Of a DNA stretch of 64,000 nucleotides, positions 2,215 to 59,810 are shown piece after piece (position 1 is the first letter of the stretch; the number at the start of each line of letters is the position of its first letter). The DNA is taken from sequence record PZ452584.1; one strand, written 5' to 3'. Both the position numbers and the translations under genes were made by a program. The DNA is from a phage. The notes beneath the pieces are model-generated. The model was not told the DNA's origin. It searched no databases and saw only the letters and a program-made list of their open reading frames with translations.

Positions 2215-2300
2215 ATCTCCGTAATTCTGTATCAGTAGTTGATAGTTGTATAGTACCACAGTATGCTTTGGTTGTAAACCGTTTTGTGAAAAAAATTTTG
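2215..2300 (-). repeat. PeSL-like cassette copy 1 (early promoter, conserved leader stem-loop, RBS) upstream of motA
   Basis: Minus strand reads GTTTAC-N18-TACTAT, then CAACTATCAACTACTGATACAG and GGAG before the ATG; same about 75-nt block recurs at six other sites; approximate. Confidence 0.7.
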
Positions 2301-2310
2301 AAATAAAAAA

Positions 2311-2330
2311 GGGAGAGCCTCGGCTCTCCC
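2311..2330 (-). terminator. intrinsic terminator after gene 52 unit
   Basis: GGGAGAGCC...GGCTCTCCC perfect inverted repeat followed on the minus strand by a T-run; approximate. Confidence 0.6.
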
Positions 2331-2335
2331 TAAAA

Positions 2336-2485
2336 TTACTGCATGACTGTGATAACTGTCATGATAACACGTTGAATTCCGAACGCAAGAAGACCTCCTG
2401 CTACGGCTGGAACAACGCCTAAACCCGCCAGTAAAATGCTACCGGATACTAATGCAGCGCTTGTAATACCAATGAATGGACTCAT
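2336..2485 (-). CDS. small hydrophobic protein about 49 aa
   Basis: ATG overlaps gene 52 stop (ATGA); predicted single TM helix; below ORF-track size cutoff; read from text, approximate. Confidence 0.3.
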   Translation of the reverse strand: MSPFIGITSAALVSGSILLAGLGVVPAVAGGLLAFGIQRVIMTVITVMQ

Positions 2486-3810
2486 TTGATTTCCTCTAAA
2501 TCTTTAGTGTATTCTGTAACTACATCAGTAGTTTTCCAATATTCGTTTTCTTCTTTTTTGGCTTTAGCTTCTTCAGCAAGTTTCTTCGCTTCATCGGAAG
2601 TCATATGAAAAATATTCATTCCAACCAGTTTATCAACATAAGAAGAATACATATTGATTTTCGAAAGTTCTTCGGTCAGTTCTTTACGAGTTTTACCCTG
2701 TACAACAATTTCACCTGAAATTACTTTCTTAATGAAATGTGCCTTGGCAAAGGCTAAACGAAAAGCGGACTCAGTTTCTTTAATTTTGTTATCAATTCGT
2801 TTTTGGACATAAGTTTTACGAACTTCAACAAAGTCTTTAATTAAATCAACTACGTTATCGTAAACTTGTAGTTTTCCTTTCTCATTAATAACCGTAATAT
2901 TCTGAGAACGACGCTCAATCAACCCGAAGTCTTTCATAATTTTTGCATGACGTTCTTCTTCATTATCGCTCAAAGAATATTCTTTGCGGAATTTAACTTT
3001 GAATCCAAAACCATGCTCACCACAAGCATCATCCCATGTAATGAAGCCTTTATCTTCAAGTGGGTCTAAGATTTTACTCACATAAGTTTCACGATCATAC
3101 TTATACGGAATCTCAGTGATATTCATTTGAGTTCGTGAAGTAAACTTGTACGTTCCACGAATTTCATATTGCCCATCAATTTCAACGACTTCACCACGAA
3201 ATTCTGGGAATTCTACCTTCGGTTTAGTTACTTTCTTTCCTTGAAGAGCTTGTAATACAGCTTTCTTGACAGAAGAAACACTATGAGGAAGAATGTAAGT
3301 TGCATAACCAGTTGCAATACCGGAAACGCCATTAAGAAGAACAGTAGGAATAATAGGCAAATAGAAAGCAGGCGGAATGTGTTCTTTATCTTGATGTACC
3401 GGAGCATATTCAGTATCTTTATATACGTTATAGAAATTTTTACTTACACGAGCAAAAATATAACGACTTGCTGCTGCTTTTTGGACGGTACGAGAACCAA
3501 AGTTTCCTTGACCATCTAACAGAGGAAAGTTATTATTCCAAGTGTTAGCCATCAAAGCACCTGCGTCTTGCGCAGAGTTTTCACCATGATGATATCCAAG
3601 GTCCGCTACACCACCTGCAATAGAAGCGAGTTTGTGAAACTTATCTTTATTTCCTCGTGCCAAATCAAGAGCTCGAGCAATAACAAATCGTTGAACTGGC
3701 TTAAATCCGTCAATCATATTTGGGATAGCACGATTTTCAACCGTGTACATAGCATAAGCCAATGCTTCATTATCAATGATACTTTTTAAATCGCGATTAT
3801 TCAGTTGCAT
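2482..3810 (-). CDS. 52: DNA topoisomerase II medium subunit (GyrA-like)
   Basis: 442 aa, same length as T4 gp52; sequence recognised. Confidence 0.95.
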   Translation of the reverse strand: MQLNNRDLKSIIDNEALAYAMYTVENRAIPNMIDGFKPVQRFVIARALDLARGNKDKFHKLASIAGGVADLGYHHGENSAQDAGALMANTWNNNFPLLDGQGNFGSRTVQKAAASRYIFARVSKNFYNVYKDTEYAPVHQDKEHIPPAFYLPIIPTVLLNGVSGIATGYATYILPHSVSSVKKAVLQALQGKKVTKPKVEFPEFRGEVVEIDGQYEIRGTYKFTSRTQMNITEIPYKYDRETYVSKILDPLEDKGFITWDDACGEHGFGFKVKFRKEYSLSDNEEERHAKIMKDFGLIERRSQNITVINEKGKLQVYDNVVDLIKDFVEVRKTYVQKRIDNKIKETESAFRLAFAKAHFIKKVISGEIVVQGKTRKELTEELSKINMYSSYVDKLVGMNIFHMTSDEAKKLAEEAKAKKEENEYWKTTDVVTEYTKDLEEIK

Positions 3811-3814
3811 AAAT

Positions 3815-3955
3815 TTACCATACTAGTGAATGTAGTGCCATAATAACATCAGAAATGAAAAGCACGACTTGAATTAATCCGAACATTACTCCATAATATA
3901 GTGCTACCAATAAAGTAGCAAGGGATAATGAATAGCCCAAGATTTTCTTAATCAT
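3815..3955 (-). CDS. small membrane protein about 46 aa (T4 52.1 position)
   Basis: ATG-initiated hydrophobic micro-ORF ending just upstream of gene 52 start; read from text, approximate. Confidence 0.4.
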   Translation of the reverse strand: MIKKILGYSLSLATLLVALYYGVMFGLIQVVLFISDVIMALHSLVW

Positions 3956-5398: not shown

Positions 5399-5512
5399 TC
5401 ACATAAATCCAAAATAAGCGTTTAATACATCAATCATTAAAACGATTGGGAATATACTCAAAACTATTAGTATTATAACTACATTCCATATAGCTTTAAT
5501 AATCTTTTTCAT
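5399..5512 (-). CDS. small membrane protein 37 aa
   Basis: ORF track trimmed to internal ATG (M46) that follows the PeSL leader and GGAGG RBS; the listed N-terminal extension is read through the leader. Confidence 0.4.
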   Translation of the reverse strand: MKKIIKAIWNVVIILIVLSIFPIVLMIDVLNAYFGFM

Positions 5513-5514
5513 TT

Positions 5515-5590
5515 TCTGTTCCTCCATAGTTGATAGGGTAATAGTACCACGGAGGAACAGTCTTGTAAACCACTTTTTTAAAAATATTCG
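5515..5590 (-). repeat. PeSL-like cassette copy 2
   Basis: GTTTAC-N18-TACTAT plus CCCTATCAACTATGGAGG leader variant; approximate. Confidence 0.65.
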
Positions 5591-5787
5591 TAATAAATGT
5601 GAATACCAATCACTACCGCCGAAACTTGCGCAACCCACCACGCACAAGCAATAAGTACAGAATTCAAAATTTTCATAATAACCTCATTACAAAAGTAAAT
5701 GTTAAACAAATTACTGGAATACTAATTAACCAAATAAAACACCACCATAGTGAACTCATAGTTCAATCTCAACGATTTTCATTTTAC

Positions 5788-5994
5788 TCAATAATCCGCT
5801 AAAAGATCGACGATTGCATCACGAAGACACTTATTCGCAATACGTTTAAGAGCAATTTCAGTTTCTGGAGCATTTTGAATAATCATTGAATTCAATTCAG
5901 CCTCAGCAAACTGAAGTTCTTTAACTAATTCAGCTTTATATTTTCCTTGCCCTTTCTTAGCTTTTGCTCGTTTTAATTCAGCTGTAGTAAACAT
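5788..5994 (-). CDS. hypothetical protein 68 aa
   Basis: ORF track trimmed to internal ATG (M34) following PeSL leader and GGAGAA RBS. Confidence 0.5.
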   Translation of the reverse strand: MFTTAELKRAKAKKGQGKYKAELVKELQFAEAELNSMIIQNAPETEIALKRIANKCLRDAIVDLLADY

Positions 5995-5996
5995 TT

Positions 5997-6080
5997 TATT
6001 CTCCAAATCCGTATCAGTTGATAGTTGTATAGTACCACGGTCCTTGTGGTATGTAAACTGTTTTGTGAAAATTTTTAAAT
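5997..6080 (-). repeat. PeSL-like cassette copy 3
   Basis: GTTTAC-N18-TACTATACAACTATCAACTGATACGGATTTGGAGAATAAAATG; approximate. Confidence 0.7.
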
Positions 6081-6632
6081 GGAAAGATACCATCCGTTGT
6101 AGTTGCTTTTTCTTACAACCTTACGAAGGTCTTCTCTATCACCGATGAACTTCGGAGTGTACTGGATGACACCTGGATGAATTTCTTTAGTGTTGAATAT
6201 AATTATACAGTCAGCGACTTGATGATTCAGAATGGGCCCTAGATTTATTCCAGAGCCATATGGATACTCTCCGCTGCATCCGGTTGTTACCGAAATCCAA
6301 CGCGAGTCAGTTTGATGTGTTTTGACTTCTACACGAAGCCCACAGTATTTTGGATGCGCCAATACATCCCATGCATATGTATATGGGTCATTAACATCCT
6401 CTTGGCCTTTGTTAACATACCCACTCAACCAATCTGCTACCACATACTCGGCATACACAGCAATACGACATCTTTCGATAACTTCTGCCTTATCCTGATT
6501 TGGATTTTGTTTTAAAGAGTATCTTGCAGTATCAGCAATTTTGGCCTTCATTTCACTAGTCAAGTCACTGTTAGATAGGGTAAATAACGGAATCTGAAAT
6601 AGTCTCTGCAAACCCGGATTCGTTTTCTGCAT
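6075..6632 (-). CDS. denB: DenB, endonuclease IV
   Basis: 185 aa, same length as T4 DenB; position between rIIB and ndd. Confidence 0.8.
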   Translation of the reverse strand: MQKTNPGLQRLFQIPLFTLSNSDLTSEMKAKIADTARYSLKQNPNQDKAEVIERCRIAVYAEYVVADWLSGYVNKGQEDVNDPYTYAWDVLAHPKYCGLRVEVKTHQTDSRWISVTTGCSGEYPYGSGINLGPILNHQVADCIIIFNTKEIHPGVIQYTPKFIGDREDLRKVVRKSNYNGWYLSI

Positions 6633-6698: not shown

Positions 6699-6714
6699 AA
6701 GGGCCGAAGCCCTT
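6699..6714 (-). other. C(UUCG)G intercistronic RNA hairpin
   Basis: AAGGGC-UUCG-GCCCUU on the minus-strand transcript; same motif near 6927-6942, 34567-34584, 36739-36752, 42920-42937, 44189-44208 and 46296-46311, several overlapping stop codons; approximate. Confidence 0.6.
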
Positions 6715-6717
6715 ATT

Positions 6718-6912
6718 TTATTTGAATTGTGCAATTCTTTTCTCTAGACATTCAGCATAAGATTTCATTGAGATGAATTGTGAAAGCAGCAGTTCTTGCT
6801 CAACTGCACTAACCGTTAGAAACTTTGCGCTTTCTAAAAATTTGCTCAGTGCATTAATTTTGAGCATTAATTGATCGTATTCTTCTTTTACTCGTGCTTG
6901 ATAACCTAACAT
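6718..6912 (-). CDS. hypothetical protein 64 aa
   Basis: ORF track; ATG preceded by GAGGAAA; immediately downstream of rIIB. Confidence 0.55.
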   Translation of the reverse strand: MLGYQARVKEEYDQLMLKINALSKFLESAKFLTVSAVEQELLLSQFISMKSYAECLEKRIAQFK

Positions 6913-6940
6913 AATTTTCCTCAGTTAAGGGCCGAAGCCC

Positions 6941-7879
6941 TTATTTAAATTGTTCAGTAACGTCTTCAACTACTTCGTATTGGCAGGTACGCATTTTAGC
7001 ATCGTTGTAATCAATCGGAATTGATACTACATCACGTGGATGTACTTTAACTTTTACAACTCGGCTGGTTGAACTGCCAAAGTGACGAATATAAGATTTA
7101 GAACACACATGCAGACCACGAGAACAAGTTTGTGTATCATCGTCATTCACACGAGTACGTGGCATTTTAACTACTTTACCCGGACTGTTATCAAAGGTAT
7201 TTGAGTGACAGTCAAAGTAATTGCTGCGAACTACTTTCCAAGCATAGAAGTAACCATCTTCTGTAATTTCAATATCGTTTGCTACTAAGAAATCAAAGAG
7301 TCGAGATACCGCTTTTTGGCTTGGGTTTTCCAACAGATTTTCCAGGAACGGAAAATAAAATTCAAAGTTTTCACCTTTTTCCATCGAATCGAGAATACGA
7401 TCAACCAAACCAGACCGCAATTCAATATTTTGATAGAACAAGCTTCCACCTTCAATTCGAACATCACCGGAAATATATTTTTCAACAGCGCGACGAACAT
7501 TAATTTTTTGTGCCGCTTCTTCTAACTTATCTGCTACGAGCAGATTAAGAATTTCCTGGAAGTTTGAATGAGTATTAGGAGTTGCGTTATAAGTTACACC
7601 ATCGACAGTAATTGAAATGAATTTTTTAGATGCATTCCAAATAATGTCAGATTTAGCAACTGGAGCAATAACTGCATCGCTATTAACTTTAACTGTAATA
7701 TCACCGCTAATAGTAACTTTAGAGTGTTTAGCTTCTTCAGCATTTTTCAAAACACGACGGATTGTGTCAACCGATACACCTTGCCAATCAGCCAATTCCT
7801 GTTGGGTGTAATTACCACTTGAATACAGCTTAACAATTTCAGCTTGTTCGTTTTTGGTCAGGCATTTAATATTGTACAT
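6941..7879 (-). CDS. rIIB: rIIB, rapid-lysis/membrane protein
   Basis: 312 aa, same length as T4 rIIB; sequence recognised; start and stop verified in text. Confidence 0.95.
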   Translation of the reverse strand: MYNIKCLTKNEQAEIVKLYSSGNYTQQELADWQGVSVDTIRRVLKNAEEAKHSKVTISGDITVKVNSDAVIAPVAKSDIIWNASKKFISITVDGVTYNATPNTHSNFQEILNLLVADKLEEAAQKINVRRAVEKYISGDVRIEGGSLFYQNIELRSGLVDRILDSMEKGENFEFYFPFLENLLENPSQKAVSRLFDFLVANDIEITEDGYFYAWKVVRSNYFDCHSNTFDNSPGKVVKMPRTRVNDDDTQTCSRGLHVCSKSYIRHFGSSTSRVVKVKVHPRDVVSIPIDYNDAKMRTCQYEVVEDVTEQFK

Positions 7880-10307: not shown

Positions 10308-10337
10308 ATTATACCACATCCTTGTGGTAAAGTAAAC
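10308..10337 (-). promoter_or_regulatory. early promoter (GTTTAC -35, TATAAT -10) for rIIA.1/rIIA
   Basis: Minus strand GTTTAC-N17/18-TATAAT overlapping the 3' end of gene 39; approximate. Confidence 0.6.
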
Positions 10338-12157
10338 TACTGGCTCATCCATTCTTTACGAAGGTCAGCATTATCTCCCATGAGCATTTCAAAAAGCTCT
10401 TTCCAGTTCTCAGGAAGTTTAACAACATCATATACTGGGTTTTGAATCATCTCACGATATTCAGATTTTTCCAAAGAGCCAAGTCCTTTAATATAACGGA
10501 TGCTATGTTTAGGTAGAGCATCTTTGGCACTCTCATATTCAGCGACTGTATAAAACCATTCTTGTTTTTTACCGACCTGAGCGATGATTACAGGAGTTTT
10601 GACAAAGCGAATTCGTCCTTGCTCAAACAATTCTGGCCAATTACTAAAAAATCCGAGCAGAGAAGGATAAATGCTTCCTAAACCATCATGGTCAGCATCA
10701 GTCATAATAGCAATATTATGATAATTCAAGTTTTCAGCTTTTTCACCAAGAACTAATCCAGTGATTGCGCAAATATCAAACAATTCTTTGTTTTTAAGCA
10801 TATCGGCATATGACATACCCCAGCTATTAAGAACTTTACCGCGCAATGGATAACCACCATGAAGTTCTTTATCACGAACATCAATAAGATATCCGATAGC
10901 AGAATCACCCTCAGTCAAGAAAAGAGTAGTATCAGCATCTTTACCACAAAGATTCGCTTTAATATGTTTATGAACCTTAGCTTTAGAAGCCTTTTTAGCT
11001 GCTTTAGTTTCTGCTGCTTTTTCTGCCGCCAATTTACGAGCCAAGGCAGCTTCAATAATTGGCATTAAAATTGCTTCATTATTTAGAATAGCACGTGAAA
11101 TCTTTTTAGCATCAAGCTGAATATGACTACGAATTTCACCAAATGGAGAAGTAAGTCGTTCTTTAGTTTGAGAATCAAATCGCATGTTTTTCATATCACG
11201 AACAAACATAACGATAGTCAAACATTCTTTAACGCGTGCTTTAGTTACATCAATTTTGAACTTACGTTTGATTTGTGGAATAAGGTCTTCACAAATATCA
11301 TCCATAACACAATCAATGTGATGGCCACCATTCTTAGTATGAATGTTATTCACATAAGTTAATTGACGAAATCCATCAGGTGAACGACCAACCGCAATAG
11401 AACAATTTTCTTGTTCTTGAACGATAGCATGTTCATCATACTGCCGTGCATATTTCTTAAAATTACCCTGAACCTTTTTACCATTAAAGGTAAATTGAAT
11501 ATCAGGATAAACAACAGCAAGTGTCTGGAGACGATCTAGTGTAATGTCAAGATAAACTTGGGACAGCTCATTAGTTTCAAATGACATAAAATCAGGAATG
11601 AAAGTAACACGGGTTCCTTTCCATTTTCCAGGAATAGTTTCCCAGGATTTATTTTCCATGCCATTTGAACAACGAACTACAATATTATTTTGACCATCGC
11701 CAGTTTCACCGACAAACATCACAGAAAAAATGTTAGTTAAACTAGAACCAACACCATTCATACCACCGGTGACACGTTCTTTATCATCACCAAAGTTACC
11801 ACCCGCTTTTGGAATAGTCCAAGCAGCAACTGGACCAGGAATTTCTTCACCGGTAGGTGTTTTAACCATCGCTTGTGGAATACCACGACCGTTATCTTCA
11901 ACTGTTACTTGATTGTTTTTGATAGTAACATTAATTTTATTTGCGAATTTAAACTTAGTACGAATACCTTCATCTACTGAGTTATCGATAATTTCATCAA
12001 TAAGCTTAACAAGACCAGGTACATACTGAACACTTTCCCATTTACCAAACAGAAAGCGCTCATGCATTTCATTAGCTGAAGAGCCAATGTACATGCCACT
12101 ACGCTTTTTGATATGTTCAATATCGCTCAGAATTTTAATTTCATTCTTAATCATCAC
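10337..12157 (-). CDS. 39: DNA topoisomerase II large subunit, unsplit (GyrB-like ATPase plus Toprim)
   Basis: 606 aa single ORF covering what T4 encodes as gp39 plus gp60; T2/T6-type arrangement. Confidence 0.95.
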   Translation of the reverse strand: MMIKNEIKILSDIEHIKKRSGMYIGSSANEMHERFLFGKWESVQYVPGLVKLIDEIIDNSVDEGIRTKFKFANKINVTIKNNQVTVEDNGRGIPQAMVKTPTGEEIPGPVAAWTIPKAGGNFGDDKERVTGGMNGVGSSLTNIFSVMFVGETGDGQNNIVVRCSNGMENKSWETIPGKWKGTRVTFIPDFMSFETNELSQVYLDITLDRLQTLAVVYPDIQFTFNGKKVQGNFKKYARQYDEHAIVQEQENCSIAVGRSPDGFRQLTYVNNIHTKNGGHHIDCVMDDICEDLIPQIKRKFKIDVTKARVKECLTIVMFVRDMKNMRFDSQTKERLTSPFGEIRSHIQLDAKKISRAILNNEAILMPIIEAALARKLAAEKAAETKAAKKASKAKVHKHIKANLCGKDADTTLFLTEGDSAIGYLIDVRDKELHGGYPLRGKVLNSWGMSYADMLKNKELFDICAITGLVLGEKAENLNYHNIAIMTDADHDGLGSIYPSLLGFFSNWPELFEQGRIRFVKTPVIIAQVGKKQEWFYTVAEYESAKDALPKHSIRYIKGLGSLEKSEYREMIQNPVYDVVKLPENWKELFEMLMGDNADLRKEWMSQ

Positions 12158-12182: not shown

Positions 12183-12207
12183 TTATACTCCGGTAATCAT
12201 AAAGCTA
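12183..12207 (-). promoter_or_regulatory. middle (MotA-dependent) promoter candidate for gene 39
   Basis: Minus strand AGCTTTA (near-MotA box) 12 nt upstream of TATAAT; approximate. Confidence 0.45.
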
Positions 12208-12224
12208 AAGGCCCGAAGGCCTTT
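12207..12224 (-). terminator. C(UUCG)G hairpin upstream of gene 39 promoter
   Basis: AAAGGCC-UUCG-GGCCUUU on minus-strand RNA; approximate. Confidence 0.5.
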
Positions 12225-12484
12225 TATTTAAAACGAATAGTTGAATCCTTAAAGAACAGCCCAGAACATACTGTTCCTTCTACTTTCTGCCCAGTAGGTC
12301 CAATAGCACGAAATCCAGTATGCTGGAAATCATTTTCAGAGCAACCGAACCAATTATATCCAGTGATTTCAATATTAGTAAAACCGCTTGAAGACAAAAC
12401 TTTAGTTGCATTATCAGCATCAGTACATCCTACTAAAGACACTACTAATACTAATGCTGCAATAGAACGATTAATATATTTCAT
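12224..12484 (-). CDS. putative lipoprotein 86 aa
   Basis: ORF track; N-terminal signal peptide with lipobox LVGC. Confidence 0.6.
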   Translation of the reverse strand: MKYINRSIAALVLVVSLVGCTDADNATKVLSSSGFTNIEITGYNWFGCSENDFQHTGFRAIGPTGQKVEGTVCSGLFFKDSTIRFK

Positions 12485-13313: not shown

Positions 13314-13583
13314 TTAATTGAACAGTGGAGCGATGCGTTTCAGAAGAGCAGCAGCACCTTTGGCAAATTTTACATCATGAAAAACAGTTTCTTCTTCCGT
13401 TACAACACGAGCTTTAATGTTTTCACAATCCCAATTTTTGCGAACAATCTTCAAAAGCTGCAGTAAATCTTTACATTCAGCAATATCGATAACACATCCA
13501 CGAGAATCTTCCATTATCGCACGATAACCGTAAGCCATACCATAATCGTTGAAAGATTGCTCGATGATAATTAAGTTTTCCAT
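13314..13583 (-). CDS. hypothetical protein 89 aa
   Basis: ORF track trimmed to internal ATG (M5) after a degenerate PeSL leader. Confidence 0.55.
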   Translation of the reverse strand: MENLIIIEQSFNDYGMAYGYRAIMEDSRGCVIDIAECKDLLQLLKIVRKNWDCENIKARVVTEEETVFHDVKFAKGAAALLKRIAPLFN

Positions 13584-13585
13584 TT

Positions 13586-13680
13586 TATTCTCCAAGTTGT
13601 TTTCTGTATCAGTAGTTGATATTGATATAGTACCATAATCAACTACTGATGTATATAGTTTTATGAAAAATTTTAAACTT
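13586..13680 (-). repeat. PeSL-like cassette copy 4 (degenerate -35)
   Basis: Conserved leader GGTACTATATCAATATCAACTACTGATACAG and GGAGAATAAAATG present, -35 region diverged; approximate. Confidence 0.5.
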
Positions 13681-14168
13681 TATGCATAGAGAGCATTGCT
13701 ATAGTGTTTAATCCAACTTTCAGGAATGACTTTGTATGTTCCTAAAAATACCACGTTGTACAACTTAACGCCATCTTCTACCCATTGATCGGTAATGTAT
13801 CCACACATAGCGCGAGTATAAACAGCCTTTCCATCATCTTTGATAAATTTAAATTCGCAAGGAGCAATGAACTTAATAGCTTGACCGAGTTTCCACTTAA
13901 AGTCTACACCTACATGCGAAGTATCAATCGTTTCAATTCCTTTAGCGGGAACAGCTTTCAAAAACGCAGATTCAAGAAATTTCGCGCGAACATAACCAAA
14001 CTGAGGTTTAGACTTTCCATCTTTAGGAATGATACGAACTTTTACTTCAGAATCTTCATCTTTAACACCATGTTTAAGCTGAATGCTTACAATTTCAACC
14101 AATTTTCCTGCTGCTTTAGAGCGGGATTTATCAGATACACGAGCTAATTCACCAATATTAATAATCAT
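13680..14168 (-). CDS. motB: MotB-like protein
   Basis: 162 aa, same length and position as T4 MotB; early promoter upstream. Confidence 0.75.
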   Translation of the reverse strand: MIINIGELARVSDKSRSKAAGKLVEIVSIQLKHGVKDEDSEVKVRIIPKDGKSKPQFGYVRAKFLESAFLKAVPAKGIETIDTSHVGVDFKWKLGQAIKFIAPCEFKFIKDDGKAVYTRAMCGYITDQWVEDGVKLYNVVFLGTYKVIPESWIKHYSNALYA

Positions 14169-22730: not shown

Positions 22731-22738
22731 TATTTATA
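22731..22738 (-). promoter_or_regulatory. late promoter TATAAATA upstream of soc
   Basis: Exact T4 late consensus TATAAATA on minus strand about 30 nt upstream of soc ATG; approximate. Confidence 0.7.
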
Positions 22739-22768
22739 ATAAATTCTCGCGGCTTTTAAGACGAGCTG

Positions 22769-23287: not shown

Positions 23288-23321
23288 TATTTTTCCTTTC
23301 AATTCATGGGTTAGTAGATTA

Positions 23322-23345: not shown

Positions 23346-23358
23346 ATAAGGAGGACAT

Positions 23359-31391: not shown

Positions 31392-31628
31392 TCAAATGCA
31401 AGTAGTAATTACTCCAGTAGTGCTTATGCAGGTATTACCCATTTGCACACCTAAAGATCCATTTGTATTCACATGAAGATTATCATCAATTTTAACTGAT
31501 ATTTTACCATTAGTGTGAATAACGGTGCTAGATTCAATCACAGGTTGAGTATCATTTTCAACACTAACAAATGGAACTGCTGCTAATGCAACTAAACAAA
31601 CTGCTAAGCATCCCATAACAATTTTCAT
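31392..31628 (-). CDS. small secreted protein 78 aa
   Basis: ORF track trimmed to internal ATG (M5) after PeSL leader; N-terminal signal peptide. Confidence 0.55.
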   Translation of the reverse strand: MKIVMGCLAVCLVALAAVPFVSVENDTQPVIESSTVIHTNGKISVKIDDNLHVNTNGSLGVQMGNTCISTTGVITTCI

Positions 31629-31629
31629 T

Positions 31630-31715
31630 TTATTCTCCAAATCTGTATCAGTAGTTGATAGTTGTATAGTACCATGGAAGAACAGTCTTGTAAACAGTTT
31701 TGTGAAAATTTTTTA
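31630..31715 (-). repeat. PeSL-like cassette copy 5
   Basis: GTTTAC-N18-TACTATACAACTATCAACTACTGATACAGATTTGGAGAATAAAATG; approximate. Confidence 0.7.
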
Positions 31716-31781
31716 GGGAATTCTAAAGGTCCAGAATCATCTGTTTTTCATAAGTATAGATTTATATTACTTGTATGAAAA

Positions 31782-42156: not shown

Positions 42157-42766
42157 GGTGTCTTTTCCATCCTAATTTAGCTGCTTTTGAAACTAGTTCT
42201 TTAATTTTTCCTTTTGTCCATTCAGGACCAGGAGGTTCATGACATAACATTTGCTTAACTCCGTTATTATACCATTTTTTACCTTTATTATGTGATGAAG
42301 CTTTAAATTTATTTGACCTTCCTTTTACATAACCTTCTGGAATATAAGGCAAAAAGGCAGATTTTCCTGTTAATGGATCATGTGAATGTATATTTCCTTT
42401 ACAATTATGAGAACCATATAATGGATGATTTTGTCCTTTATTATCTCTTCCAAATGAACCTTTTGGAGCAGCATATGACATATTAAAGAATAATGGATTT
42501 TTAACTGCATCATGCAATCGTTGATAATATAACTCGCATTTAATAGCTTCTTCACGCGTATCAAATTCAGCTAAAATGCATGAATCAAATAAGTGAGGAT
42601 TATCTGAAAGCTCTTTATTATAAATTTTCTTATACTTTTTAGATAAAACTGAACCATGATATCCAGCTAAATGCCTATCTAAAGACGTAGATCCAATATA
42701 AAAAGGAGGAAGTTTATCTCCACTATATATATTGTTAAATAAGTTATATATTTTTTCATATATCAA
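42134..42766 (-). CDS. GIY-YIG-like homing endonuclease (Seg-like), possibly degenerate
   Basis: N-terminal NIY-x8-YIG with downstream R and E, then N.P.YG linker motif typical of free-standing phage endonucleases; no in-frame ATG before the catalytic motif (TTG start listed). Confidence 0.5.
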   Translation of the reverse strand: MIYEKIYNLFNNIYSGDKLPPFYIGSTSLDRHLAGYHGSVLSKKYKKIYNKELSDNPHLFDSCILAEFDTREEAIKCELYYQRLHDAVKNPLFFNMSYAAPKGSFGRDNKGQNHPLYGSHNCKGNIHSHDPLTGKSAFLPYIPEGYVKGRSNKFKASSHNKGKKWYNNGVKQMLCHEPPGPEWTKGKIKELVSKAAKLGWKRHHENTKLG

Positions 42767-42896: not shown

Positions 42897-42935
42897 TATA
42901 TCAAACTCCGTATAAAGCTAAAGGGCCGAAGCCCT

Positions 42936-44138
42936 TTATTTTGTAATAATGTCAAACTGTTCTTTAAAGCAGAAGCTTGAATCTTGATGCTGATACAAAA
43001 ATTCATAAGCTTTTTCACGTTCACGGTCATAAAGAGCTCGGTCAGATGACAGTTCTTTAATACGTTCAAATGTTGATTCCATGTCATTTTCATCAAACCA
43101 AACGATACCGCTATCATGTGAAATTAACGGAGTATTATCAACACGGAATTTTAAATTTTCGCCAGTAGATTTCCAAAATACCGGAATTGTTCCACATGCA
43201 CCAAGCTCGAGATGAGTATATTCTAAAGAACGTTGTAGATATTTTTTATCCAACTTACTCAACTGATAACCAAAACCGGATTTACTCATACGTTCAAGCA
43301 TTTCGCTATTTACATAACGGTCAAGAATTTGCGTTGGTAAATTAGGAGCAATTTTAATTTGGTCTACTTGATGAAGACGATAATACTCGTATGGAATTCC
43401 TTTTTCTTTAATAGGAATGAACGCTGGAGAACGTTCCAGACCTTCCATAATAGTACTTAGTCCTGCAGGTTTAAGATGTTTTTCGTGAAAATCAAACATC
43501 TGATAAAAACCTTTCCATGTAGTCGTACGACCAATCCAACGGTTGATATTCATGTTAATTTCAGAAACATCTTTCCAGTAGGTTGATCGAACCTTCGCAA
43601 TATCCATAGGAGGCTGAAAGTTGTATACGGTCGGTGCTTCTTCAATGTCATCAAACAGAGAAACTGTTTCAGGATACCATTCTTTCATCAGAACTTTATT
43701 AAAATCGCCATTATCAGAATGACTAAAAATAACATCAGCTCGACGAACAGTTTCTTCTAATCCCAAATTTCGACGCAAAGAAAGAGAAGAATGGTCATGC
43801 TGATAAACTACAACACGAACCGAAGGTTTAATGTTATCAATAATTTTTTTATAGTTATTAATAGTGTCTTCTTCAACTGAAGTAGCAGGAACTGAATTGA
43901 TAATTAGAATATCACAATCATTTACCAGCTTAAGTGTTTTATCGTATTCTTTTGCCAATAAAACCGGAATTGAAAATGATTTATAATCATGTGCACAGTT
44001 ACGAGTAAATGATTTATCTTTAGCATAAACCAAAGTTACTTCATGACCATTTTTAATAAACCAATCACGTTGCTCAAGAGAAAATTTAGTTACACCACAA
44101 CCTTCAAGACCTCGAGCCATAAAAATACATACTTTCAT
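42936..44138 (-). CDS. agt: alpha-glucosyltransferase
   Basis: 400 aa, same length as T4 alpha-gt; N-terminus recognised. Confidence 0.9.
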   Translation of the reverse strand: MKVCIFMARGLEGCGVTKFSLEQRDWFIKNGHEVTLVYAKDKSFTRNCAHDYKSFSIPVLLAKEYDKTLKLVNDCDILIINSVPATSVEEDTINNYKKIIDNIKPSVRVVVYQHDHSSLSLRRNLGLEETVRRADVIFSHSDNGDFNKVLMKEWYPETVSLFDDIEEAPTVYNFQPPMDIAKVRSTYWKDVSEINMNINRWIGRTTTWKGFYQMFDFHEKHLKPAGLSTIMEGLERSPAFIPIKEKGIPYEYYRLHQVDQIKIAPNLPTQILDRYVNSEMLERMSKSGFGYQLSKLDKKYLQRSLEYTHLELGACGTIPVFWKSTGENLKFRVDNTPLISHDSGIVWFDENDMESTFERIKELSSDRALYDREREKAYEFLYQHQDSSFCFKEQFDIITK

Positions 44139-46258: not shown

Positions 46259-46309
46259 ACATTATCCTCAATTACGTTAAAATTTTATTATCCAAAAGGG
46301 CCGAAGCCC

Positions 46310-46510
46310 TTAGCTAAACTTTTTGGCACCCTTCCAGCCTTCGTACATCATTGCGACTGACAATGACAAAGCTCCTTCGCATGCTGCATACTTATTATTC
46401 CAGAACCAATTTAGAAAAACTTCATCCTCAATACCATTGTGTTTCATGTTCTGGAAAAATTTGGCGCGTTCTTCAGCAATTCGCTGCGATAATTTAGATT
46501 CAGGATTCAT
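46310..46510 (-). CDS. hypothetical protein 66 aa
   Basis: ORF track; ATG start. Confidence 0.5.
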   Translation of the reverse strand: MNPESKLSQRIAEERAKFFQNMKHNGIEDEVFLNWFWNNKYAACEGALSLSVAMMYEGWKGAKKFS

Positions 46511-47915: not shown

Positions 47916-48386
47916 TTAATCATGTTTCCACACCCCATCGGTATTTGACCAAAGTCGCTGATTATCTGATCCTCGCCACAGCTTTTTGGTCGGAAGATTT
48001 TTCTCATACTTCCCATCAATAATAACATCAACATATTTAAGCATTTCTAGTTGTTTAATATCTTCAAACTTATATCCTGTCCACAACCAAATGCTTTTAT
48101 TGGGATAAAGATTTTTTACTGTTTGAACAATGCAATGAATAACATCTCGATTGTCAGGATAAAGAGGGTCACCTCCGGTTATAGTTAATCCTTCTATATA
48201 ATCATTATTCAAACATTCAATTAATTGTTCTAGTGTTTCACCAGTGAATGGAATACCATTTCTAGCATTCCATGTTGATTTATTATAACACCCTTCGCAT
48301 TTATGCAAACAACCTGTAACGAAAAGAACTGTCCTGCATCCAGGACCATTAACAAAGCAGCACGGGTATATTCTGTCATAATTCAT
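47916..48386 (-). CDS. nrdG: NrdG, anaerobic ribonucleotide reductase activase (radical SAM)
   Basis: 156 aa, same length as T4 NrdG; Cys cluster C..GC......GC.KCEGC. Confidence 0.9.
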   Translation of the reverse strand: MNYDRIYPCCFVNGPGCRTVLFVTGCLHKCEGCYNKSTWNARNGIPFTGETLEQLIECLNNDYIEGLTITGGDPLYPDNRDVIHCIVQTVKNLYPNKSIWLWTGYKFEDIKQLEMLKYVDVIIDGKYEKNLPTKKLWRGSDNQRLWSNTDGVWKHD

Positions 48387-49215
48387 TTATATATTTCCAA
48401 TTATAGCCTTCAACACTTTTACGTTCGCCATTTAAACATTTTAAAATATTTCCTTTGCTAGAAATATTAAAATATTTTGCTGCGTCTGGTATATAATTAA
48501 ATGTTTTTAAAAGAACACCATCTTTATATGCGCCAAATAAATTAAGAGTATATTTTTCTCGAAGACGCTGATGTTTCCTTTTCATAACCTCAGGATTTGC
48601 ATACGCCAACTTCAATGAATTTCTGTGTTTTTCTTTTACTTCAGGTTTTTGCATTGCTAACTTAGTTAGCCTGGAAATTTTATTTCTAACTTCGTCAGTT
48701 TTCATTGCATTTGACAAATTTAATAAAGTTTTATTTCTAACTTCAGGTTTTTGCATTGCTAACTTAGTTAGTTCTCTATGTCTTTTTCTAAAATCGTCAT
48801 CCTTCCATATATTTTTCGATAATTTTGACATAGAGCGGTGAAATAATTCCTTTTCACTGGAATACAATTTAAAAATTTCATCCAATTCATCCGCATTAAA
48901 TCTATCGGTATTCGAGTTTATCATTCTATGAAAGGCATAACACATTTTACTATTGCTTGTTTTAGCTAAATAGTAATGAGCTAACGCATGGTCATAATAT
49001 GACAAATTAACAATATTCCATTTATCTGTTTTATATTCAGGAAATATAGATTTGGGAAGCACGTGATGTGCTTCCGTTTTTCCTTTTATTTTAGGATTAT
49101 TATAATTTTTTGTTATCAAATCAACATATGACAATAGTAAATCATTATTTTCTTCAAATATTAAAGCTAATTTATCATTCACAAAATCGCAAGGATAAAA
49201 TCTATCATAATTCAT
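48376..49215 (-). CDS. putative HNH homing endonuclease (MobD-like) 279 aa
   Basis: KTEAHHVLPKSIFPEY...NIVNLSYYDHALAH HNH-like motif plus repeated KLAMQKPEV modules; first 9-10 residues mirror the nrdG N-terminus; sits between nrdD and nrdG. Confidence 0.75.
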   Translation of the reverse strand: MNYDRFYPCDFVNDKLALIFEENNDLLLSYVDLITKNYNNPKIKGKTEAHHVLPKSIFPEYKTDKWNIVNLSYYDHALAHYYLAKTSNSKMCYAFHRMINSNTDRFNADELDEIFKLYSSEKELFHRSMSKLSKNIWKDDDFRKRHRELTKLAMQKPEVRNKTLLNLSNAMKTDEVRNKISRLTKLAMQKPEVKEKHRNSLKLAYANPEVMKRKHQRLREKYTLNLFGAYKDGVLLKTFNYIPDAAKYFNISSKGNILKCLNGERKSVEGYNWKYINEL

Positions 49216-51029
49216 TGGTGTTTAACCCTATGCATGATTTCTTTATTTTTACCGAGATTAAATCCGCGTTCGTTCGGGTTTCCAAGATATCCGCATGTTC
49301 TTCTTATTGTATTCATCTTTTTAGGATCAGTTTCTCCACAAATAGAACAAACAAATCCGTTTTCAGTAGGAGTCATTTCATGGGTACTTCCACATGTAAA
49401 ACATTTATCTACTGGCATATTAACACCAAAATAATCTAAATGTTGTGCAGCATAATCCCATACGGCCTCAAGGCCTTTTAGGTTATTTTTCATATCAGGA
49501 AGTTCAACATAAGAAATGTGACCACCTGTCGCAATGAAATGATATGGTGCTTCACGAGAAATTTTTTCAAACGGAGTAATATTTTCTTCTACTGAAACGT
49601 GGAAACTGTTAGTGTACCATCCTTTATCAGTAACATCCTTTACACTTCCATATTTTTCGGTATCGAGTTTACAGAAGCGATAACAAAGGTTTTCAGCAGG
49701 AGTAGAATACAAACTAAAAGCAAATCCGGTTCTTTCAGTCCACTGTTTAAGATGGGCATTCATTTTAGTTAAAATTTCTTGTCCAATATCACGACCGGCA
49801 AGAATATTCAATTCGTGAATACCAATGTATCCTAGAGACACTGAACTTCTACCGTTTTTAAATAACTCAATTATGTCGTCATCAGGTTTAAGACGAACCC
49901 CGAATGCACCTTCTTGGTAAAGAATAGGAGCAACAGTAGCTTTAACTCCTTTTAAGGAACTAATTCTACACATCAAGGCTTCAAAACATAAATCCATTCG
50001 TTCATTGAACAATTCGATAAATTTCTGTTCATTGAACTGTGTTCCAATATAAGAATCTAACGCAATACGAGGAAGATTCAGTGTTACAACACCGAGATTA
50101 TTACGTCCATCAAGAATTTCATTGCCAGTCGAATCTTTCCATACGCTCAAGAAACTACGACAACCCATTGGAGAAACAGGAATAGATGAGCCGGTGATAG
50201 CTTTATTGTTCTTAGCTGAAATAATATCAGGATACATTCTTTTGCTTGCGCACTCTAGAGCAAGCTGTTTAATATCATAGTTCGGATCGTCTTTATAAAG
50301 ATTAACACCTTCTTCAACGAACATAACAAGCTTAGGGAAAATAGGAGTTATCCCATCACGACCGAGACCTTTAATACGATTTTTCAGAATTGCTTTCTGA
50401 ATCATTCGTTCAGTCCAGTCAGTTCCTGTACCAAATGTAATTGTTACAAAAGGTGTTTGTCCGTTTGAACTAAAGAGAGTATTTACTTCATATTCATAAG
50501 CTTGGAATGCATCGTATACGTCTTTTTCTGTTTTAGATTGGGCATAATTCAGTGCATCGGCGATTTGCCATTTTTCTGCGTCCTCGATATGTTTTGCATA
50601 GGTGCGTTTAACATAAGGAGAAAGTACTTTATCTACATTCGCAAAAGTCGTTCCGCCGTATTGGTGAGAAGCAACCTGTGCGGTAATTTGTGCCATAATT
50701 GCAGTAGCAACGCCAATTGATTTAGGAGTTTCAATCTGCGCATTACCAAGCTTAAATCCGTTCTCAAGCATTCCTTTTAAATCTACTAAACAGCAATTAG
50801 TAAATGGAAGAGCAGGGGAATAATCAATATCATGAAAATGAATAATTCCGCTTTCATGCGCTTTCATAATAAAAGACGGGACCATATTTTTGGCAATGTG
50901 TTTAGACACAATACCAGCCATAAGGTCCCGTTGAGTTGGAAAAACACGAGAATCTTTGTTAGCATTCTCGTTTAAAAGGTCTTTATTAGTTTTATGAATC
51001 AATCCTTCAATTTCTTTTTCAATTGTCAT
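49212..51029 (-). CDS. nrdD: NrdD, anaerobic ribonucleotide reductase (glycyl radical enzyme)
   Basis: 605 aa uninterrupted; C-terminal glycyl radical motif RRTCGYLG; same length as spliced T4 NrdD. Confidence 0.97.
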   Translation of the reverse strand: MTIEKEIEGLIHKTNKDLLNENANKDSRVFPTQRDLMAGIVSKHIAKNMVPSFIMKAHESGIIHFHDIDYSPALPFTNCCLVDLKGMLENGFKLGNAQIETPKSIGVATAIMAQITAQVASHQYGGTTFANVDKVLSPYVKRTYAKHIEDAEKWQIADALNYAQSKTEKDVYDAFQAYEYEVNTLFSSNGQTPFVTITFGTGTDWTERMIQKAILKNRIKGLGRDGITPIFPKLVMFVEEGVNLYKDDPNYDIKQLALECASKRMYPDIISAKNNKAITGSSIPVSPMGCRSFLSVWKDSTGNEILDGRNNLGVVTLNLPRIALDSYIGTQFNEQKFIELFNERMDLCFEALMCRISSLKGVKATVAPILYQEGAFGVRLKPDDDIIELFKNGRSSVSLGYIGIHELNILAGRDIGQEILTKMNAHLKQWTERTGFAFSLYSTPAENLCYRFCKLDTEKYGSVKDVTDKGWYTNSFHVSVEENITPFEKISREAPYHFIATGGHISYVELPDMKNNLKGLEAVWDYAAQHLDYFGVNMPVDKCFTCGSTHEMTPTENGFVCSICGETDPKKMNTIRRTCGYLGNPNERGFNLGKNKEIMHRVKHQ

Positions 51030-52797: not shown

Positions 52798-52798
52798 A

Positions 52799-57762: not shown

Positions 57763-58290
57763 TTATGCGAGTACCGTCTTTAACCGTTCTTCAAACTTCC
57801 GAAGAGTGTTCTGGCGTTCAGCTCTTTGCTTTTTGTAAGTTTCAATACGCTCTGAAATGAGAGTGTATCGTTCATTTACTGATTCTTTCATAAAATCAGG
57901 AATTTCACGAGAAGCTTTAATCTCGTCAAATTTATCAATAACAGCTTGCTCTTCAGCAATTAAGTTATCATACATCAAAATATCTTTCTTGATGAACTCA
58001 ATATCTTCTTGAGTTACACGAGATAATTTAGATGCTTTATCCTTTTTGTACTGTTCGTTAGTATCACGAGACCAGTGTAATGTACGATTTTTATTCGTAT
58101 TTTTGTAAATTTCTACAATACCAATCTCATCGATAATAACGATCCAATTCCAACGGGATTTATAAATTTGTCCTCCATCAACCGTGATTTCACCTCCGAT
58201 TGAGATGTCATTAAAGAACTTGCTTTGTGCTTCAGATTTAAATTTACCATCGTTGTAATTTACCAGGTTGAAAATATCTTTAGCATTCAT
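57763..58290 (-). CDS. hypothetical protein about 175 aa
   Basis: ORF track trimmed to internal ATG (M21) following PeSL leader and GGAGGAACAG RBS. Confidence 0.6.
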   Translation of the reverse strand: MNAKDIFNLVNYNDGKFKSEAQSKFFNDISIGGEITVDGGQIYKSRWNWIVIIDEIGIVEIYKNTNKNRTLHWSRDTNEQYKKDKASKLSRVTQEDIEFIKKDILMYDNLIAEEQAVIDKFDEIKASREIPDFMKESVNERYTLISERIETYKKQRAERQNTLRKFEERLKTVLA

Positions 58291-58291
58291 T

Positions 58292-58370
58292 TTCTGTTCC
58301 TCCGTAGTTGATAGTTGTATAGTACCACAGAGGAACGGTCTTGTAAACAACTAAAAGAAACTTCTTTCAC
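58292..58370 (-). repeat. PeSL-like cassette copy 6
   Basis: GTTTAC-N18-TACTATACAACTATCAACTACGGAGGAACAGAAAATG; approximate. Confidence 0.7.
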
Positions 58371-58665
58371 AATTTTTTCCACTGAACCAAGCGCTCACTG
58401 CTTTCTTAGTCTCAGGAGCAGTATTATCCATAAACCATTCAAAGGCAGCCTTTTTATGATTCTGGAGGGCTTCTCGGGCTTTAATCTGCTCACGGTCTAT
58501 TAACACTAACATATGAGCCTTTCTTGTCACCAGGGGCTTCTTATGATTTTTTGAATATTCCCAATCATTTGTCCATCGCATCGTTGTTGCGAATTGAAGT
58601 ACAGCTTCTTTAATCTTAGTTTCGTAAATTTCACGAGCCTTTGAGTATAACATCATTACCTCCAT
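58351..58665 (-). CDS. hypothetical protein 104 aa
   Basis: ORF track; start among ATG GAG GTA ATG ATG uncertain. Confidence 0.5.
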   Translation of the reverse strand: MEVMMLYSKAREIYETKIKEAVLQFATTMRWTNDWEYSKNHKKPLVTRKAHMLVLIDREQIKAREALQNHKKAAFEWFMDNTAPETKKAVSAWFSGKNCERSFF

Positions 58666-58755
58666 TTACCAGTTTAATTCTAGTCATCTTTTTAATGGCA
58701 GTCCATATAATCTATTTCTGAACTGCCTTTTTGTCTTAGAAGTCCTCTTATGAAT

Positions 58756-59724
58756 TTATTTCAGAAGAGTAACCTCAGCGATTTCTTCCCAGCCGTTTTT
58801 GTCGGTCATAATAAAGTCAGCAAGATAAAGAGCAGTACGCAGTGAAACATTGCGTAAACGATTAACATTGACTTTCATCCATGATAATGCTTTATAAGTT
58901 TCTTCATCAGAAAGACCACGCTTTTGCATCATGTCGGTTGAAAGAATAACATCTTCAACCCTGACCATAATTTCTTCATTAGTGTGAACACCCAAATCCA
59001 AATAAACTGAGCGGGACACTAATGCTTGTAAATGTGGAGCAAGTTTAGTACCACGGTCTAATTCGCGGTCAATGTCAACGTTTGTGATAAAAACAATCGT
59101 TCCTTTAAATTCAAACTCACGCTCAATGCCTTTTTCTTCTAAGTAAGAAGATGCAGTGCTCCAGCAGACTTTACGGGTCTCTCCAGTGTCCAGAGCGGCT
59201 TTTAGAAGATTAAGAATATCCATATCAGAGAAAACATCCACATCATCAATCAAAAGGACAGAATTCTCTTCACGATTATTCCAAAGCTGCTCATAAAGAC
59301 CGATACCGGAGATTTTACCGTTAATGCTTTTATATTCAATGTATCCATTATCATTTGCTTTATTTAAAGCTTTATCTAAAGAATACGTTTTACCAATACC
59401 CGCCGCACCAGAGATAATTAATGAACGAATGTTTCCGTTAATAATACCATTCGTCATCATTCCCATAACATTAAATCTTTTATTAATGCGGGTTTTCATA
59501 TCTTCATATGATTCTTTAACTTCTTCAACTTTTACACCATCATATGAAATGTCTGATTTGTAAACCCAAACACCGCGACGTTTACCGTCAATTTCAACAA
59601 AAACTTTACCATCTCCTTGTGCATCTACCGGAGCATTATCTGGGAACCATTCACCTAAGAGCTCAAAAGTTCCAGAGATTTCTTTACCAAAGTAGATACC
59701 CTTATTGATAGTTACAGTTTTCAT
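58756..59724 (-). CDS. P-loop NTPase (Walker A/B) 322 aa
   Basis: ORF track trimmed to internal ATG (M5) after PeSL leader; Walker A GAAGIGKT, Walker B-like VLLIDDVD; own promoter, terminator hairpin upstream. Confidence 0.7.
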   Translation of the reverse strand: MKTVTINKGIYFGKEISGTFELLGEWFPDNAPVDAQGDGKVFVEIDGKRRGVWVYKSDISYDGVKVEEVKESYEDMKTRINKRFNVMGMMTNGIINGNIRSLIISGAAGIGKTYSLDKALNKANDNGYIEYKSINGKISGIGLYEQLWNNREENSVLLIDDVDVFSDMDILNLLKAALDTGETRKVCWSTASSYLEEKGIEREFEFKGTIVFITNVDIDRELDRGTKLAPHLQALVSRSVYLDLGVHTNEEIMVRVEDVILSTDMMQKRGLSDEETYKALSWMKVNVNRLRNVSLRTALYLADFIMTDKNGWEEIAEVTLLK

Positions 59725-59725
59725 T

Positions 59726-59810
59726 TTATTCTCCAAATCCGTATCAGTTGATAGTTGTATAGTACCATAAAGCTTTATGCTTGTAAACAGTTTTGTGAAA
59801 AAATTTTTGA
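59726..59810 (-). repeat. PeSL-like cassette copy 7
   Basis: GTTTAC-N18-TACTATACAACTATCAACTGATACGGATTTGGAGAATAAAATG, preceded by a terminator hairpin; approximate. Confidence 0.7.

Follow-up and report, generated by a model that had tools for sequence, protein, structure and literature searches.

Seven T4-type early-promoter cassettes in the early region of a Tequatrovirus: promoter anatomy, stem-loops and gene exchange

Early promoters of phage T4 form a class with a UP element, a -35 box, a TGn motif and a -10 box, and with extra consensus (Hinton 2010, PMC2988021). In several T4-type genomes such promoters recur within promoter-early stem-loop (PeSL) units, described for phi1/RB49 (Arbiol 2010) and for the pairs PST/T4 and nt-1/KVP40 (Comeau 2014, PMC4122927); the PeSL consensus for PST/T4 is TTTACW-N17-TAYWAT (Comeau 2014, PMC4122927). 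Earlier PeSL-like elements at the internal-protein loci were T4 early promoters with AT-rich stem-loops (Arbiol 2010), and both PeSL papers describe the stem-loops solely as terminators or attenuators (Arbiol 2010; Comeau 2014, PMC4122927). We analysed a 64,000-nt stretch of phage sequence record PZ452584.1 (the window, at its full length), in which a sequence-only reading had pointed to seven copies of a PeSL-like cassette, and compared these copies with the known systems.

Two further T4 systems bear on the cassettes: (i) the endoribonuclease site RegB/S1, whose optimal T4 target is the 11-mer GGAGAAUAAAA (consensus GGAGRAYARAA), with motA a good and nrdC.8 a moderate substrate when tested in T4 (Durand 2006, PMC1702504), and with motA mRNA cut by RegB in its Shine-Dalgarno (SD) sequence (Hinton 2010, PMC2988021); and (ii) the ribosome-binding-site hairpins of T4 e, soc, 49 and I-TevI (Uzan and Miller 2010, PMC3014915), in which the 5' arm lies upstream of an internal late promoter's start and the 3' arm contains the SD, so that only read-through RNA folds and RNA from the internal promoter stays open.

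The seven cassettes and their T4 counterparts

All seven blocks were found near the positions reported, every one on the minus strand (no strand had been named), and are called c1 to c7 in order of position (Table 1). They are very probably one sequence subfamily of T4-type immediate-early promoter/leader units, each with a syntenic T4 counterpart, with shuffling as in the published PeSL model. A 22-nt core, TGGTACTATACAACTATCAACT, is exact in five of the seven, with three mismatches in c4 and four in c2; shuffled sequence gave no matches. An independent repeat search returned the cassette family as the largest dispersed repeat of the window (69 nt, eight copies; the one beyond c1-c7 is the promoter at 47178). 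When the copies were aligned from the UP element to the ATG (~100 nt), pairwise identity was 59-87%, so that the repeat is real but "almost identical" had overstated its degree. Likeness is greatest between c3 and c7 (85% over 85 nt) and between c2 and c6 (88% over 67 nt), and the subfamilies within the set are c3/c7, c2/c6 and c1/c4/c5.

By its sequence, the window is the early region of a T4/T2-like coliphage of the genus Tequatrovirus: its first 20 kb had megablast matches in 991 phage records, the best being Escherichia and Shigella Tequatroviruses at 95-96% identity, and the nrdC region is 97.3% identical to that of phage T2. T4 carries the cassette core at all seven syntenic positions (Table 1), with identical or nearly identical sequences, and has at least four more core copies outside the span of the window (e.8, trna.4, denV and rI.-1). 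We looked for annotated promoter features in the GenBank T4 records NC_000866 and AF158101 and found none; orthology to the T4 promoters is therefore drawn from sequence likeness. The window holds ~20 early-promoter-like units, and the seven are the subset that shares the TACTAT -10 variant and the initial transcribed sequence ACAACTATCAACT, whereas the remaining units have TATAAT or TATAGT and other leaders. That the seven copies form a special mobile family is not supported; compared in this way, they are one subfamily of the ~20, each orthologous to a T4 promoter.

The promoters have the same anatomy and genome positions as the T4 early promoters, and nothing essential differs (Hinton 2010, PMC2988021). 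The cassette anatomy fits both that class and the PST/T4 PeSL consensus: a -35 box GTTTAC(A/T), a 17-bp sigma-70 spacer (18 nt when counted from GTTTAC), TGn and a TAnnnT -10 box. The motif GTTTAC-N18-TACTAT, claimed for all seven, is exact in six; c4 and its T4 orthologue both carry ATATAC at -35. One further exact GTTTAC-N18-TACTAT, at 25444-25473, has a different leader. An A/T-rich UP element (-40 to -60) of the AAAAATTTTTCACAAAAC type is present in c1, c3, c4, c5 and c7, weaker in c2 and divergent in c6.

Promoter activity and start sites are predicted by analogy with T4. At infection, the A/T-rich UP element, GTTTAC(A), the 18-bp gap, TGG and TACTAT would recruit unmodified host sigma-70 RNA polymerase, and transcription would start at the A seven nt past TACTAT (positions by homology in Table 1). 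In one T4 transcriptome paper, a region that follows an early promoter begins at map unit 27,044; this position is the A seven nt past TACTAT of the imm.1 cassette. A limited literature search for a genome-wide T4 start-site map turned up none. The leader of 22-37 nt would then end in a GGAG SD, which in four copies is the optimal RegB/S1 site GGAGAAUAAAA, and RegB, aided by ribosomal protein S1, would cut the leader and end translation after a short burst.

The ribosome-binding ends, which had been given as a GGAG(A)-type end in two versions, vary: GGAGAATAAAATG in c3, c4, c5 and c7, GGAGGAACAGAAAATG in c2 and c6, and GGAGATTAGAAAATG in c1. The RegB/S1 11-mer occurs exactly four times in the window, and all four are cassette ends (c3, c4, c5 and c7) that equal the T4 optimum (Durand 2006, PMC1702504). 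The c1 version, GGAGAUUAGAA, departs from the consensus once; that of c2 and c6, GGAGGAACAGA, departs twice, off the A-rich rule at positions 7-8. The T4 counterparts of c1 (motA) and c6 (nrdC.8) are the tested substrates, and RegB cleavage in this phage is expected from the sequence match and by analogy. On this expectation, the cassettes would mark immediate-early, RegB-limited genes. Two known elements under strong constraint, a maximal sigma-70 promoter and a ribosome-binding site sensitive to RegB, thus account for much of the conserved block.

The open reading frame (ORF) artefact noticed earlier is real. Mechanical ORFs begin at a TTG within TTGGAGAATAAAATG, which yields a false MENKM extension (13314..13595, 31392..31640 and 58756..59736), or further upstream. 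For annotation, the true gene starts are the ATGs 7-9 nt past GGAG, and the in-frame TTG of TTGGAGAATAAAATG misleads ORF callers.

Distant T4-like genera (IMG/VR contigs L130, L131 and L132) keep GTTTAC-N18-TAYTAT, but have CATACCAAAC or CTACACCAACA in place of CTATCAACT; the initial transcribed motif is uniform inside one genome and diverged between genera. In an IMG/VR scan with GGTACTATNNNNNTATCAACT, ~30 of the matches listed were true cassettes and ~3/4 were chance matches in unrelated contigs.

Gene exchange at cassette junctions

We made a collinear comparison with T4 in which differences of at least 50 bp were counted (n=20). Four of the 20 adjoin one of the seven cassettes (P=0.008 versus random placement). 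At c3, a 68-aa ORF lies between GGAGAATAAAATG and a cassette remnant, GAGTAAAATG; in T4 the remnant is the end of the intact cassette and directly abuts an 8-codon mini-ORF. This mini-ORF (5756-5782, minus strand, MKIVEIEL) has a stop codon that overlaps the ATG of the ndd.6-like gene (ATGA), and the start codon of the T4 cassette opens the mini-ORF, not ndd.6, an arrangement that suggests translational coupling. At c5, the insert is a 78-aa ORF that precedes imm.1 (31001-31381), and ATGAAAAT recurs at its two ends. The 200-bp T4 deletion at c4 begins nine nt past the start codon. At c7, a 620-bp module is flanked by a ~50-bp direct repeat (60392-60441 versus 59773-59822) that covers the terminator T-run, the UP element and the -35 box. 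T4 has a single nrdC.10 cassette here, composed of the terminator of the window's 60411 cassette and the spacer, -10 box and leader of c7, which is the product expected of a crossover inside CCCTTTTTATTTCAAAAATTTTTCACAAA. Other copies are mosaics as well: c7 combines the UP element of c1 (93%) with the leader of c3 (100%), and c5 combines the c2 spacer (89%; c2/c6-type) with the c3/c7 leader (90%). Some IMG/VR Tequatroviruses have an extra gene between a c1-type cassette and motA.

Taken with the relatives below, this comparison supports cassette-mediated shuffling, in which the cassettes would offer sites of crossover for the insertion, loss or swapping of genes. Recombination in T4 needs less than 50 bp of homology. 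Because the cassettes share near-identical stretches of ~20-85 bp, they could satisfy that need, and recombination at them is the mechanism we infer.

The genes behind the cassettes had been proposed as recently acquired cargo. We used ~500 close relatives (GenBank phage records) as the baseline for gene presence; a related-locus search seeded with DenB had given 8 loci, and the GenBank phage collection was far richer. The c5 ORF was present in 319 records, the middle part of the c4 ORF in 261, the c3 ORF in 118 (T2 included) and the module upstream of c7 in 44, so these four are variable, and the cargo claim stands at c3, c4 and c5 and, with the adjoining module, beside c7. It fails for the core gene motA (506 records) and for nrdC.8/nrdC.10 (nrdC.8-10, ~500 records), which are in ~500 of ~500 relatives; ndd.4 was present in T4 and in each of the five IMG/VR Tequatrovirus contigs that we inspected.

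The module upstream of c7 encodes a 161-aa protein that is 28-30% identical to both ModA and ModB and retains the R, S-x-S and E-x-E motifs of an ADP-ribosyltransferase. Its ORF occurs in 44 phage records only, among them T2, Salmonella phage STML-198 (Gelderlandvirus) and Citrobacter phage Moon (Moonvirus). In the Gelderlandvirus and Moonvirus phages the module is ~95% identical, against 68-76% for the neighbouring genes; for STML-198, identity is 94.5% to window positions 59832-60428, 76% in the flanking nrdC.10 and 68% in nrdC.11. Likeness to STML-198 extends from near the -35 hexamer to the c7 terminator/UP element, and STML-198 has a Tequatrovirus-type c7 leader fragment without a -35 box ahead of a small extra gene. 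Because the module is so much more alike than its flanks, these identities point to a recent transfer between genera. The locus is a clean example of the process: a third, predicted, Mod-like ADP-ribosyltransferase gene between two cassettes.

The cassettes are early-promoter cassettes of the PeSL kind, as had been recognized, and they sit at real junctions of gene gain and loss. They share with PeSLs the repeated intergenic AT-rich region, early promoter, SD and ATG (Arbiol 2010; Comeau 2014, PMC4122927), with a stable stem-loop in c1, c2, c4, c6 and c7, the tie to indels and replacements, including the ndd.4-ndd.6 locus illustrated by Comeau 2014 (PMC4122927), and the hybrid and "half" cassettes at junctions. 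Every component is already known from T4 early promoters, the RegB/S1 site and the PeSLs of phi1/RB49 and T4/PST. The sequence-only reading thus recognized a known system correctly, but got one detail wrong (the stem-loop, below) and generalized too far on one point (the cargo). Current understanding is unchanged, and the published models are seen in one more genome. Arbiol 2010 drew an analogy with integron gene cassettes, phage morons and Botstein linker sequences. Self-expressed single-gene modules inserted at conserved linkers are common to all of these; the phage cassettes have no dedicated integrase or attC, and general T4 recombination is presumed. For phage evolution and engineering, the cassettes may be regarded as natural self-insulated expression units and crossover points.

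Several points weigh against shuffling at the cassettes. If indels are limited to gene boundaries, their link to the cassettes weakens (estimated P ~0.2), and at least seven of the 20 T4 differences are homing-endonuclease or intron events, a different mechanism. The motA, ndd.4, nrdC.8 and nrdC.10 cassettes are positionally stable between T4 and this phage, so that much of the likeness could reflect functional constraint and not mobility. As for the functional side of our reading, the regB gene itself is outside the window, start sites and RegB cleavage are carried over from T4, and the conserved leader stretch ACAACTATCAACT(ACT)GATAC is covered by neither the promoter nor the RegB-site function. 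A rival explanation is constraint alone: the likeness would be that of a maximal sigma-70 promoter and a RegB/S1 site, and indels would lie nearby since both occur at gene boundaries, with no role in recombination. The best-conserved stretches are indeed known functional elements while the spacer is variable, T4 and the window agree in all seven positions, the leader motif of distant genera is again homogeneous but different (CATACCAAAC or CTACACCAACA), as if shaped by shared function, and breakpoint enrichment is modest when gene boundaries alone are considered. Yet cassette sequence is repeated at the c3, c5 and c7 junctions, as homologous crossover predicts, the T4 nrdC.10 cassette combines parts of both cassettes beside the window's module, c7 and c5 are mosaics, and the Gelderlandvirus leader fragment of Tequatrovirus type adjoins the transferred module. 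We consider constraint without recombination unlikely. Far less likely still, to the point of being negligible, is that the copies are the ends or targets of autonomous mobile elements (a miniature inverted-repeat, MITE-like, transposon or a homing-endonuclease target). Dispersed repeats beside variable genes, in a window rich in homing-endonuclease differences from T4, would fit such elements, but all copies run in gene direction, and the endonuclease-linked T4 differences (mobA, segF, segA, mobB, mobC, I-TevII and mobD) lie elsewhere. The absence of terminal inverted repeats, of target-site duplications and of any transposase or endonuclease gene beside c1-c7 led us to reject this candidate.

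Stem-loops of the cassettes

The remaining alternative concerns the stem-loop that had been taken to define the cassette, the leader inverted repeat TATCA-N5-TGATA, which on this reading would act either in RNA, as a hairpin, or in DNA, as the operator of a dimeric binding protein. The full repeat, TATCAACTACTGATA, is exact in c1, c4 and c5 and in several T4 copies, and its position at about +1 to +15 would suit an operator. In c3 and c7, however, it is cut to TATCAACTGATA, with ACT deleted and the loop reduced to 2 nt, and c2 and c6 are without the 3' half. The predicted start falls inside the hairpin and removes the first stem base. Folding from the -35 box to the start codon was no better than for shuffled sequence (z +0.25 to +1.1 in c1, c3, c5 and c7), so the hairpin is unsupported. 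Since the copies are homologous, they count as one occurrence, for which we estimate a chance of ~0.1 for a 5+5 repeat in a 30-nt leader. A functional role of the repeat is very improbable, and we rejected it as the functional stem-loop on the fold z-scores and the lack of conservation.

The real stem-loops are upstream intrinsic terminators (c1 and c7) and hairpins that span the -10 box (c2, c4 and c6). The terminators are G+C-rich and directly upstream of the cassette promoter. In c2, c4 and c6 the stem is formed by the promoter spacer and the leader, and the loop holds the -10 box and the start site; fold energies and z-scores were -23.6 kcal/mol and -5.4 for c2, -20.2 and -4.6 for c4, and -19.4 and -3.9 for c6, with none of 200 shuffles as stable. 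The 3' arm in c2 and c6 is the SD itself (CUGUUCCUCC pairs with GGAGGAACAG), whereas in c4 the SD is outside the stem; at the c4 hairpin, an inverted copy is on the plus strand at 13637-13651. A weak, non-significant 6-bp hairpin (z +0.5) is present inside the spacer of c3, and c5 has no hairpin. As a positive control, the same fold scan recovered the gene 49 hairpin (site 51555). The -10-spanning hairpins were also considered as intrinsic terminators; no U-run follows their 3' arms, which rules this out. Among the PeSLs, those of PST/T4 have stem-loops just upstream of the promoter, a position filled here by the terminators in only two of seven cassettes, and a -10-spanning position has been described for phi1/RB49, which we find in three of seven.

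Hairpins of this kind are not confined to the cassettes. Eight of the ~19 early promoters scanned in the window had z < -3.4, compared with 1.6% of 250 random 65-nt segments. In T4 we surveyed coordinates 160-168.9 kb and 0-100 kb (35 candidate early promoters): 15 had z < -3, and 14 of these 15 hairpins span the -10 box, including those of motB, motB.2, dmd, regB, denV, ipI and ipII. In ~40% of the T4-type early promoters in these two sets, the promoter's own -35/-10 spacer is the 5' arm of a strong hairpin and the leader, often with the ribosome-binding/RegB site, is the 3' arm. The arms differ in sequence among paralogues (for example, UCUCCUGU/ACAGGAGA at denV-type cassettes). Across nine c2/c6 variants, 95.6% of cells were paired, and all three internal substitutions preserve pairing by wobble. 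A double compensatory change was sought in these nine and none was found, which limits the support from orthologues; the case for such selection therefore rests mainly on the independent hairpins of different sequence at paralogous promoters.

Non-cassette early promoters of the window within -10-spanning hairpins (z -3.4 to -5.7) have their -35 boxes at 63612, 25976, 15344, 14242 and 20315 (minus strand); those at 25976 and 63612 are 87% identical over 38 nt. Over 32 nt, the promoters at 10337 and 55380 reach 97% identity, and both have a CCACAAGGATGTGG hairpin inside the spacer. In Moon and STML-198 (loci L133 and L134, 2150-2250), the spacer GGTATGA pairs with the leader TCATACC.

In our main reading, the cassettes are insulated by the upstream intrinsic terminators in c1 and c7 and by the 13-15 bp spacer/leader hairpins in c2, c4 and c6. 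By its geometry such a hairpin can form solely in RNA from promoters further upstream, and in c2 and c6 it takes up the ribosome-binding site. A bolder suggestion, to which we give somewhat less than even weight, is that the spacer-leader hairpin of these early promoters may be a designed insulator. Read-through RNA would fold and hide the ribosome-binding site and, if untranslated, would be open to Rho-dependent termination; RNA from the cassette's own promoter would be open, translatable and RegB-cleavable. Each promoter-gene unit would then be independent of context, which would make shuffling within and between genera possible. If true, such insulators would be to early promoters what the hairpins of e, soc, 49 and I-TevI are to late ones. 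The geometry of c2 and c6 is the same, with the 5' arm upstream of the start and the SD in the 3' arm, and by this geometry read-through RNA alone would fold. The internal promoter in c2 and c6 is early, however, not late, so that their hairpins would separate neighbouring early units and not delay expression. The breadth of -10-spanning hairpins, many of which bury the ribosome-binding site, and the clean transfer of the Mod-like module between genera go slightly, and incrementally, beyond the PeSL papers.

Features of the window

Coordinates of the cassettes and their parts are collected in Table 1.

Table 1. Cassettes c1-c7, their stem-loops and the adjoining module in the window, with T4 positions of the syntenic core
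Feature	Coordinates	Strand	Elements	Context and T4 counterpart
c1, motA early-promoter cassette	2206..2330	-	-35 GTTTAC 2274-2279; TGG and -10 TACTAT 2250-2255; predicted start A 2243; SD GGAGAUUAGAA; ATG 2208	downstream protein MotA; T4 orthologue 163652 (motA)
c1 intrinsic terminator	2311-2330	-	GGGAGAGCC-GA-GGCTCTCCC + T6	directly upstream of UP element/promoter
c2 cassette	5510..5600	-	-35 5565-5570; -10 5541-5546; predicted start 5534; SD GGAGGAACAG; start codon 5512	ahead of 37-aa ndd.4-like ORF (5399-5512); T4 166786 (ndd.4)
c2 hairpin, 15 bp	5516..5560	-	spacer/TGG CUGUUCCUCCGUGGU with leader/SD ACUAUGGAGGAACAG	-10 box and start site in loop
c3 cassette	5992..6088	-	predicted start 6022; SD GGAGAAUAAAA; start codon 5994	ahead of 68-aa ORF (5788-5994) absent from T4; T4 167065 (ndd.6 side)
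c3 cargo ORF, remnant and mini-ORF	5756..5994	-	ORF 5788-5994; cassette remnant GAGTAAAATG 5780-5789; 8-codon mini-ORF 5756-5782	
c4 cassette	13581..13686	-	-35 ATATAC; predicted start 13620; SD GGAGAAUAAAA; start codon 13583	ahead of 89-aa ORF (13314-13583) truncated in T4; T4 6609 (upstream of cef)
c4 hairpin, 13 bp	13608..13650	-	spacer AUCAGUAGUUGAU with leader AUCAACUACUGAU	around -10 box, SD free
c5 cassette	31626..31725	-	predicted start 31659; start codon 31628	downstream of gene 43, ahead of 78-aa ORF (31392-31628); T4 27059 (imm.1)
c6, nrdC.8 cassette	58288..58378	-	predicted start 58312; start codon 58290	T4 53922 (nrdC.8)
c6 hairpin, 13 bp	58296-58336	-	spacer with SD	
c7, nrdC.10 cassette	59722..59838	-	UP element, promoter, leader; predicted start 59752; SD GGAGAAUAAAA; start codon 59724	T4 55363 (nrdC.10)
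c7 intrinsic terminator	59820-59838	-		directly upstream
Cassette-flanked inserted module	59839..60459	-		absent from T4
Module terminator and early promoter	terminator 60440-60459	-	GTTTAC 60406-60411; TATAAT 60382-60387	
161-aa ModA/ModB-like ADP-ribosyltransferase ORF	59848-60333	-		also in L133 and L134, 2501-2986

The minus strand carries nearly all genes of the window, arranged as in the early region of T4: motA, 52, ndd, denB, rIIB, rIIA, fused 39/60, motB, dda, modA/B, 61, 41, uvsX, 42, imm, 43, 45, 46, 47, 55, nrdD, 49 and nrdC to mobD. A search of the window with Rfam at the gathering threshold gave no match.

Several differences from T4, at 10337-12157, 22738-23348, 29009-29857 and 50491-50494, have no link to the cassettes. 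A 606-aa ORF is a fusion of genes 39 and 60, without the mobA insertion or the bypass segment; segF and dam are absent; beta-gt and segA of T4 are replaced by a 282-aa TAGT-family glycosyltransferase; and nrdD has no intron and no I-TevII. A 174-nt repeat of 73% identity (40398-40571 versus 48920-49093) lies inside two minus-strand ORFs, 39839-40693 (284 aa) and 48376-49215 (279 aa), which are not at these sites in T4; one has a weak I-HmuI NUMOD-like match. A third inserted ORF, 42134-42766 (minus strand), has a weak GIY-YIG match. The three are probably homing endonucleases, at sites other than those of T4 mobB, mobC and segA. In place of T4 gene 61.2, the ORF 24753-25109 (minus strand) has a Pfam match over its C-terminal part to Anti-DarT factor A (AdfA; E=2.4e-8).

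The window has another family of dispersed repeats, which reads AAGGGCCGAAGCCCTT on the plus strand; the transcribed strand reads GGGCUUCGGCCC and includes a UUCG tetraloop. Its copies (6699-6724, 6927-6952, 12199-12229, 34565-34596, 36735-36766, 42921-42946 and 46296-46321) look like intrinsic terminators. The AAGGGCCGAAGCCCTT family resembles the GGGC/GCCC motifs that Mosig tied to T4 deletions (cited in Arbiol 2010).

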